Positions 10,330-10,405 of a stretch of 10,833 bases of DNA are shown here, in pieces; the stretch's first letter is position 1, and the number at the start of each line of letters is the position of its first letter. Source of the DNA: a virus; the IMG/VR virus record IMGVR_UViG_3300042731_011235; one strand, written 5' to 3'. The translations under genes and the position numbers were made by a program. Below the pieces are notes generated by a model, which was not told where the DNA came from, did not search any database, and saw nothing but the letters and a program-made list of their open reading frames with translations.

Positions 10330-10405
10330 TGGTCGGGCGAGTGGGGGTTGAACCCACGACTTCCAGTTTATAAGACTGGCGCTCTAACCACTGAGCTACC
10401 GCCCG
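10330..10405 (-). tRNA. tRNA-Ile(UAU), CCA encoded.
   Basis: The reverse complement is (G)CGGGCGGTAGCTCAGTGGTTAGAGCGCCAGTCTTATAAACTGGAAGTCGTGGGTTCAACCCCCACTCGCCCGACCA. The D-arm TAGCTCAGTGGTTAGAGC is identical to E. coli tRNA-Ile2. The anticodon stem is CCAGT/ACTGG with loop CTTATAA. Placing U8 and A9 implies a C1-G72 pair, so the 5' end is uncertain by 1 nt. Confidence 0.8.

Follow-up and report, generated by a model that had tools for sequence, protein, structure and literature searches.

The closest described counterparts of the tRNA considered here are two bacterial tRNAIle species with an encoded UAU anticodon. The tRNAIle2(UAU) of M. mobile carries an unmodified U34 and reads AUA, and the isoleucyl-tRNA synthetase (IleRS) of this organism has Arg at the position where the E. 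coli enzyme has Trp905. IleRS of the E. coli type (Trp905) charges UAU tRNA poorly, and an unmodified UAU anticodon also binds AUG on E. coli ribosomes (PMC3575796). The second case is a tRNAIle(UAU) that suppresses a tilS deletion in B. subtilis; it is charged well by the Arg-type B. subtilis IleRS, its U34 is unmodified, and its binding to AUA is much stronger than that to AUU or AUG, with in vivo misreading at a level of approximately 1 in 1000 (PMC3919564). Reviews otherwise describe the UAU anticodon as lost or very unusual in prokaryotes (PMC8007984, PMC1635315), and a survey of L. curvatus prophages reported it in one of 10 tRNA-Ile genes (PMC10688831). We found no paper that deals with phage tRNA-Ile(UAU) as such.

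The stretch of DNA analyzed here, referred to as the window, comprises the 10,833 nucleotides of IMG/VR virus record IMGVR_UViG_3300042731_011235. Screening with ARAGORN identified eight tRNA genes in the window. All of them encode CCA and lie on the minus strand, along which they follow one another in the order Ile(UAU), Leu(CAA), Lys(CUU), Ser(CGA), Ser(UGA), Ser(GCU), Phe(GAA), and Ser(GGA). The original prediction of a tRNA-Ile with a UAU anticodon proved exact in its coordinates, and ARAGORN places the gene on the minus strand (Table 1).

Table 1. Coordinates of tRNA-Ile(UAU), its structural parts, and neighbouring genes in the window.
Feature	Position	Strand	Evidence or remark
tRNA-Ile(UAU) gene	10330-10405	minus	76 nt, CCA encoded; ARAGORN (tRNA-Ile, anticodon tat), Rfam, fold
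Acceptor 5' strand of tRNA-Ile(UAU)	10405-10399	minus	
D-arm of tRNA-Ile(UAU)	10396-10381	minus	
Anticodon arm of tRNA-Ile(UAU)	10379-10363	minus	
Anticodon loop CUUAUAA	10374-10368	minus	Sequence read and Rfam alignment
Anticodon UAU	10372-10370	minus	
Variable loop of tRNA-Ile(UAU)	10362-10358	minus	
T-arm of tRNA-Ile(UAU)	10357-10341	minus	
Acceptor 3' strand of tRNA-Ile(UAU)	10340-10334	minus	
Discriminator A73	10333	minus	
CCA	10332-10330	minus	
Small Cys-rich ORF	10396-10620	minus	Directly upstream; covers first 10 nt of tRNA-Ile(UAU)
tRNA-Leu(CAA)	10229-10313	minus	16 nt downstream of tRNA-Ile(UAU)
HNH homing-type endonuclease	9497-10054	minus	Pfam HNH_5 1.3e-14, phrog_16726 3.4e-36
tRNA-Lys(CUU)	9142-9219	minus	
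tRNA-Ser(CGA)	8963-9049	minus	
tRNA-Ser(UGA)	8252-8341	minus	
tRNA-Ser(GCU)	7967-8054	minus	
Major vault protein (MVP) homologue	5097-7694	minus	865 aa; Pfam MVP_shoulder 9.5e-25, Vault_3
tRNA-Phe(GAA)	5009-5086	minus	
tRNA-Ser(GGA)	3279-3365	minus	

The Rfam tRNA model RF00005 matched the gene over its full length with 72.1 bits (E=1.4e-14; gathering score 29), the top score among the eight tRNAs of the window, and the minimum-free-energy fold is a clean cloverleaf of -29.8 kcal/mol. The tRNA reads CGGGCGG UA GCUC AGUGGUUA GAGC G CCAGU CUUAUAA ACUGG, followed by AAGUC GUGGG UUCAACC CCCAC UCGCCCG A CCA. All 21 stem pairs are formed, with G7-U66 as the sole non-Watson-Crick pair; C1 and G72 form the first pair, A73 serves as the discriminator, and the CCA end is genomically encoded. 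The 7-bp acceptor stem, the D, anticodon, and T arms, U8, A14, G18-G19, U33, and a T-loop of the form UUCNANN are all present, and there is no sign of an intron in the gene. Since the anticodon loop comprises 7 nt with U33 before the triplet and A37 after it, its register is unambiguous and the anticodon is UAU. Direct reading of the sequence thus bears out both the loop and the C1-G72 first pair that had been noted originally.

The element was assembled independently at least twice more, as a 16.7-kb JGI contig with 99.9% identity over window positions 1-10536 (L001) and as a Logan contig (L002), and the tRNA-Ile(UAU) gene is identical in both of these further assemblies. Two more distant relatives were also recovered. 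One is a 43.6-kb ENA contig (L225) that was found via the MVP protein and not via the tRNA; its MVP homologue is 76% identical to that of the window, its gene order is as in the window (tRNA-Ile(tat), tRNA-Leu(caa), HNH, and Ser tRNAs), and its tRNA-Ile(UAU), at 7940-8018, scores 68.4 bits with Rfam. The other is a 23.9-kb contig (L232) that has no proteins in common with the window and carries a third close copy of tRNA-Ile(UAU), at 8931-9007, beside a tRNA-Leu(CAA). The pattern with which L232 was found fixed the 5' acceptor strand and the D-arm, and therefore only the remaining parts of its tRNA count as independent evidence.

In the alignment of the three tRNAs (window, L225, and L232), 98.4% of cells are standard pairs. 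Both sides have changed in five of the 21 stem pairs, three of them in the anticodon stem and two in the T stem, compared to zero or one when the pairing partners are slid by 1-3 columns. The loop CUUAUAA, C1-G72, A73, and CCA are invariant in all three copies. The compensated stem changes and the invariant anticodon loop indicate that tRNA-Ile(UAU) is under selection with its UAU anticodon, and it is therefore neither a pseudogene nor mis-registered. A degenerate gene, a chance cloverleaf, or a loop read in the wrong register with another anticodon is effectively refuted as an explanation: no support for it was found, with C1-G72 and the one G-U pair as the sole oddities, and against it stand the Rfam score (the best of the tRNAs in the window), the 7-nt loop with U33 and A37, the complete set of stem pairs, the conservation in three contigs with five compensatory pairs and a fixed loop, and the identical gene in two further assemblies. 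Mis-registration and pseudogene status were the two ways in which the original prediction had allowed that it might fail, and both are ruled out. Collectively, these observations establish tRNA-Ile(UAU) as a genuine, conserved, phage-borne tRNA gene.

The acceptor stem CGGGCGG in combination with a UAU anticodon was found, beyond the window, only in L225 and L232. An exact tRNA scan of IMG/VR with N at position 34 returned 0 matches, and the clade-specific tRNA pattern had 0 matches among 185,579 species genomes and thus pointed to neither a prophage nor a host. When applied to metagenomes, the clade pattern recovered only L232 and three initiator-like CAU tRNAs. These three tRNAs were rejected as relatives because position 72 is mismatched, their anticodon stems are G-C-rich, and their anticodon is CAU. 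Bacterial initiator tRNA-fMet has a CAU anticodon, a C1xA72 mismatch, and an anticodon stem that ends at the bottom in three consecutive G-C pairs. An initiator identity was likewise rejected for tRNA-Ile(UAU), whose C1 pairs with G72, whose anticodon is UAU, and whose anticodon stem has the sequence CCAGU/ACUGG. The soil-metagenome CAU tRNAs at L230 805-879 and L231 161-238 match tRNA-Ile(UAU) in the 5' strand CGGGCGG and in the D-stem; they have a C1xC72 mismatch, which is unusual for initiator-like tRNAs, and G-C-rich anticodon stems.

Several further tRNAs have unusual features. A tRNA called by ARAGORN at L225 4952-5028 has an abnormal anticodon loop ('tt') and still scores 51.4 bits with Rfam, and a 3'-half tRNA fragment lies at L225 7367-7404, directly after a tRNA-Val(GAC). 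On a contig with an MVP homologue 76% identical to that of the window (ENA ERZ25073477; L227), the tRNA-Phe at 5190-5265 is called with anticodon AAA, and its counterpart in the window has GAA; to our knowledge, a tRNA-Phe with A34 is very unusual. Finally, tRNAs with a CUA anticodon (called 'Pyl' by ARAGORN) are present at positions 1877-1950 of a JGI contig with an MVP homologue 52% identical to that of the window (3300023196; L228) and at positions 22191-22266 of Xanthomonas phage Xoo-sp13 (L222). These amber-suppressor-type tRNAs are a hint that some of these large phages read through or recode stop codons.

The setting of the gene is that of a phage tRNA region, with a virus genome in which tRNAs point in one direction and are interspersed with small ORFs and homing endonucleases. 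All sizeable ORFs of the window lie on the tRNA strand, small ORFs of no known function separate the tRNAs, and the HNH gene sits between the Ile/Leu tRNA pair and the next tRNAs, a layout typical for such regions. Within 6 kb of the minus strand (3279-9049), tRNA-Ser genes with the anticodons GGA, GCU, UGA, and CGA together cover all six serine codons, and this set of four isoacceptors is unusually complete for one amino acid in a stretch of eight tRNAs. Other genes on L001 and L225 match PHROG families and further HNH endonucleases, and large phages rich in tRNAs, among them phiCbK-like phages of Caulobacter, encode proteins with 42-46% identity to a 190-aa protein of L001. A megablast search of the whole window against cultured phages gave no match. 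No capsid, terminase, or other structural hallmark gene is present on the available phage DNA, and the description as a large tailed phage accordingly derives from gene context; the carrier of tRNA-Ile(UAU) is probably an uncultured, large, tailed phage.

The ORF for an MVP homologue, a homologue of a eukaryotic protein, sits between tRNA genes in this phage context. Viral and bacterial MVPs have already been described in preprints (10.1101/2023.11.10.566534; 10.1101/872010). We detected thousands of homologues in bacterial MAGs at approximately 47-50% identity, relatives in phage context at 76%, and homologues with 42-46% identity in the uncultured huge phages LR756500/501/503 (462-735 kb). 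There are no tRNAs next to the MVP loci of these huge phages, and the MVP-like protein as a query in IMG/VR yielded no confirmed relative.

The approximately 200 nt upstream of tRNA-Ile(UAU) are conserved at approximately 85% identity between the window and L225. This conservation is explained by the small Cys-rich ORF that occupies the region, the stop codon of which falls inside tRNA-Ile(UAU) and the counterpart of which lies at L225 7725-7949. At 10564-10566, the window copy of this ORF contains an in-frame TAG; the corresponding codon of L225 is TGG (Trp). The TAG may be a nonsense mutation, an assembly error, or a site of read-through; the other two assemblies end before that base. A scan of the conserved 200 nt for sigma-70-like promoters found no site, and an Rfam search of the same 200 nt found no family. 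The overlapping ORF and the lack of a promoter-like site upstream suggest that the Ile-Leu pair, with its 16-nt spacer, is cut from a longer transcript. Most likely, the pair would be co-transcribed with upstream genes and then excised.

The isotype of tRNA-Ile(UAU) follows from its anticodon and discriminator and not from its body. The original prediction held that the D-arm and overall sequence resemble bacterial tRNA-Ile2. This is true of the D-arm, UAGCUCAGUGGUUAGAGC, which is identical to that of enterobacterial ileX-type tRNAs; the same D-arm also occurs in Asp, Met, His, and Ile(GAU) tRNAs. It does not extend to the overall sequence, which is only 64% identical to the enterobacterial ileX-type tRNA. 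The nearest bodies among 156 cultured-phage tRNAs are Asp(GUC) and a CAU tRNA (77%), followed by two Ile(GAU) tRNAs (75% and 73%) and then Lys, and a BLAST search of tRNA-Ile(UAU) against phages likewise returned mixed isotypes. Because its neighbours are of mixed isotype, body similarity cannot assign the isotype, and identity rests on the anticodon and A73.

To gauge how common an encoded UAU is, searches were conducted with a pattern made up of the D-arm of tRNA-Ile(UAU), CTTATAA, and GGTTCAA; C32 and A38 are fixed by this pattern and were therefore not counted as evidence. The pattern occurs at at least 120 loci in IMG/VR viral contigs, representing at least 64 distinct sequences, and at at least 120 loci (L234-L353) in GTDB species genomes, representing at least 101 distinct sequences that, among the matches listed, all come from MAGs. 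The viral tRNAs among the matches listed form 18 clusters below 85% identity and lie on contigs of up to 263 kb, and the bacterial carriers among the matches listed are mostly MAGs of Patescibacteria/CPR or MAGs labelled as uncultured Gammaproteobacteria. The GenBank phage MW202795.1 also has an annotated tRNA-Ile that is TAT. The statement that bacteria and phages rarely encode UAU therefore fails, given this many loci from one narrow pattern, and published accounts greatly understate how common an encoded UAU is in uncultured phages and bacteria. UAU was found in none of eight cultured tRNA-rich phages (T4, T5, Xoo-sp13, Tunturi_5, RAS14, SPAsTU, Wakanda, and vB_EliS-L02).

When position 34 was left free, the viral matches listed comprised 94 CAU, 26 UAU, and 0 GAU anticodons; many of the CAU matches resemble host genes of the enterobacterial ileX type situated at the ends of prophages. 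When viral UAU tRNAs were concatenated and compared to cultured phages by BLAST, CAU tRNAs of Vi01-like phages dominated the matches, and the search was set aside as uninformative on UAU. About half of the viral UAU matches listed belong to one family, that of L008 and approximately 60 further IMG/VR contigs of 15-17 kb from sample 3300045988. Members of this family (~16 kb) each carry a single near-identical tRNA-Ile(UAU) with a GGCCTAT... acceptor stem and mostly G1-C72 or G1-U72.

Positions that the pattern left unconstrained reveal which features of the window tRNA are general. Among the matches listed, A73 is present in 64/64 viral and 101/101 bacterial UAU tRNAs. C4-G69 is dominant among the matches listed (52/64 viral and 93/101 bacterial), and G4-C69, as in the window tRNA, occurs in five of the 64 viral sequences listed. 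A29-U41, again as in the window tRNA, is the commonest 29-41 pair among the matches listed (51/64 viral and 43/101 bacterial). The C1-G72 pair, which had been called unusual, is indeed atypical for bacterial tRNA-Ile, but it is no oddity: among the matches listed, 6/64 viral and 6/101 bacterial UAU tRNAs have this pair, and it is no rarer in other phage tRNAs, with 11 cases among 185 other viral tRNAs, five of these cases being tRNA-Pro. It is a recurring minority feature, yet one that is fixed in the clade of the window, L225, and L232.

We consider it likely that tRNA-Ile(UAU) is a functional phage tRNA that is charged with isoleucine by the host and reads AUA independently of TilS. Decoding of AUA without TilS had been proposed originally and is retained as the most plausible role, given the UAU anticodon and by analogy with described tRNAs; on the same analogy, the tRNA would be charged with isoleucine, carry an unmodified or benignly modified U34, prefer AUA over AUG, and be independent of TilS. 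In the proposed mechanism, tRNA-Ile(UAU) would be transcribed along with tRNA-Leu(CAA) and the small ORFs nearby, RNase P and processing at the 3' end would free it from the transcript, the host isoleucyl-tRNA synthetase would load it with isoleucine, and its genomically encoded U34-A35-U36 would pair with the AUA codon. Possession of this tRNA would make it possible for the phage to use AUA at an unbiased frequency. Of all Ile codons, AUA makes up 24.5% in L001 and 27.9% in L225, which corresponds to approximately 14 per 1000 codons, and the share expected from fourfold-degenerate third positions is 28-30%, near the observed 24-28%. This indicates that these phages do not avoid AUA. No further Ile tRNA was seen in the 16.7 and 22.7 kb of L001 and L225.

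Assignment to the lysidine type of tRNA-Ile2(CAU), the substrate of TilS, was rejected, as position 34 is T in the window, L225, and L232. With U and not C at position 34, formation of lysidine by host TilS would not be needed. MetRS requires C34, and the U34 of tRNA-Ile(UAU) therefore also excludes charging with methionine. The TilS of E. coli is reported to use the acceptor-stem pairs C4-G69 and C5-G68; tRNA-Ile(UAU) has G4-C69, though C5-G68 is present. The identity set of E. coli IleRS is said to comprise A35, U36, A37, A38, A73, U12-A23, C29-G41, and C4-G69. Of these elements, tRNA-Ile(UAU) has A35, U36, A37 (the t6A site), A38, A73, and U12-A23, and it lacks two, with G4-C69 instead of C4-G69 and A29-U41 instead of C29-G41. 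Charging of the tRNAIle(UAU) of L. plantarum was reportedly not detectable. We predict that tRNA-Ile(UAU) functions in hosts with an IleRS that accepts U34, such as one with Arg at the position of E. coli Trp905 or one of the eukaryote type.

Possible misreading of AUG and the question of U34 modification, both raised in the original prediction, are real issues in the literature (PMC3575796, PMC3919564). A competing explanation, which we regard as unlikely though worth weighing, is that U34 of the same tRNA is enzymatically modified and that the modification, rather than the bare U, sets decoding to AUA only, AUA and AUG, or AUA and AUU; candidates at this same level of doubt are xm5U of the host MnmE/MnmG type, cmo5U, pseudouridine, or an unknown or phage-directed modification. 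U34 of bacterial tRNAs is almost always modified. A haloarchaeal tRNAIle C34U mutant is described as modified and then reading AUA>AUG>AUU (PMC3919564), and eukaryotic tRNAIle(UAU) carries a modified U34 (PMC1635315). However, U34 is plain in both chemically analyzed bacterial cases, those of M. mobile and the B. subtilis suppressor (PMC3575796, PMC3919564), and the 16.7-22.7 kb of available phage DNA showed no gene for tRNA modification.

The codon usage of these phages also bears on a further explanation, in which tRNA-Ile(UAU) is not mainly an adaptor that supplies a codon but a counter-defence spare that takes the place of, or competes out, a host AUA-reading tRNA depleted or cleaved upon infection, or an uncharged regulatory or decoy tRNA. 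The set of eight tRNAs, with its complete Ser complement and tRNAs for Lys, Leu, and Phe, shows no obvious correspondence to rare codons, phage tRNAs are said to rescue translation after host tRNAs are cleaved or degraded, and the L. plantarum tRNAIle(UAU) reportedly goes uncharged. Nevertheless, we judge such a role very improbable: the window has no defence or anti-defence context, the unbiased use of AUA by the phage already constitutes a direct translational need, and an invariant anticodon loop with compensated stems is what is expected of an ordinary decoding tRNA.

If tRNA-Ile(UAU) indeed decodes AUA without TilS, as its sequence suggests, this phage family would supply its own AUA decoder and bypass the essential TilS of its host, and a testable prediction about that host is that its IleRS accepts U34. 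The recovery of at least 120 viral and at least 120 bacterial loci with one narrow pattern means that tRNA-Ile(UAU) ought to be handled as a regular class rather than an anomaly in annotation and in studies of codon usage. It is doubtful, albeit conceivable, that the encoded UAU represents a distinct and largely overlooked AUA-decoding route of many uncultured phages and Patescibacteria-type hosts. Were this so, UAU might be favoured over CAU because the host lacks or is short of TilS or has an Arg-type IleRS; alternatively, TilS independence might allow escape from a host bottleneck or from a defence directed at tRNAIle2 or TilS. The C1-G72 acceptor stem that the clade conserves would then be a specific determinant of processing or charging and not a neutral variant.

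Comparison with known systems places the window tRNA among bacterial-type AUA decoders. Eukaryotic tRNAIle(UAU) has the same anticodon and codon target but differs in body sequence and processing; its genes contain an intron and its anticodon is pseudouridylated (psi-A-psi). The M. mobile tRNAIle2(UAU) and the B. subtilis suppressor are, like the window tRNA, of bacterial type with an encoded UAU, A37, and A73 (PMC3575796, PMC3919564, PMC1635315), and the presumed common role is the reading of AUA as Ile without lysidine or TilS. Those two tRNAs are chromosomal and belong to cells without TilS, and experiments have demonstrated their unmodified U34, their charging by an Arg-type IleRS, and their preference for AUA over AUG, whereas the window tRNA is phage-borne; C1-G72 and G4-C69 further set it apart from them. 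The tRNA-Ile2(CAU) of phages T4 and T5 resembles the window tRNA in being a phage-encoded AUA decoder among other tRNAs, and the T5 tRNA region is, like the window, one in which tRNAs are interleaved with small ORFs and HNH endonucleases. However, T4 and T5 encode C34 (CAT) and hence depend on host TilS, whereas the window tRNA encodes T34; the use of CAT in these coliphages fits with the poor charging of UAU tRNA by E. coli IleRS (PMC3575796). The UAU tRNAs of uncultured viruses, prophages, and Patescibacteria MAGs share the D-arm, anticodon loop, T-loop, and A73 of the window tRNA, and the nearest of these viral and bacterial tRNAs have approximately 75-81% identity to it among the matches listed. 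The clade defined by the CGGGCGG stem, C1-G72, and a tRNA-Leu(CAA) partner is thus a new example of a populous known class.
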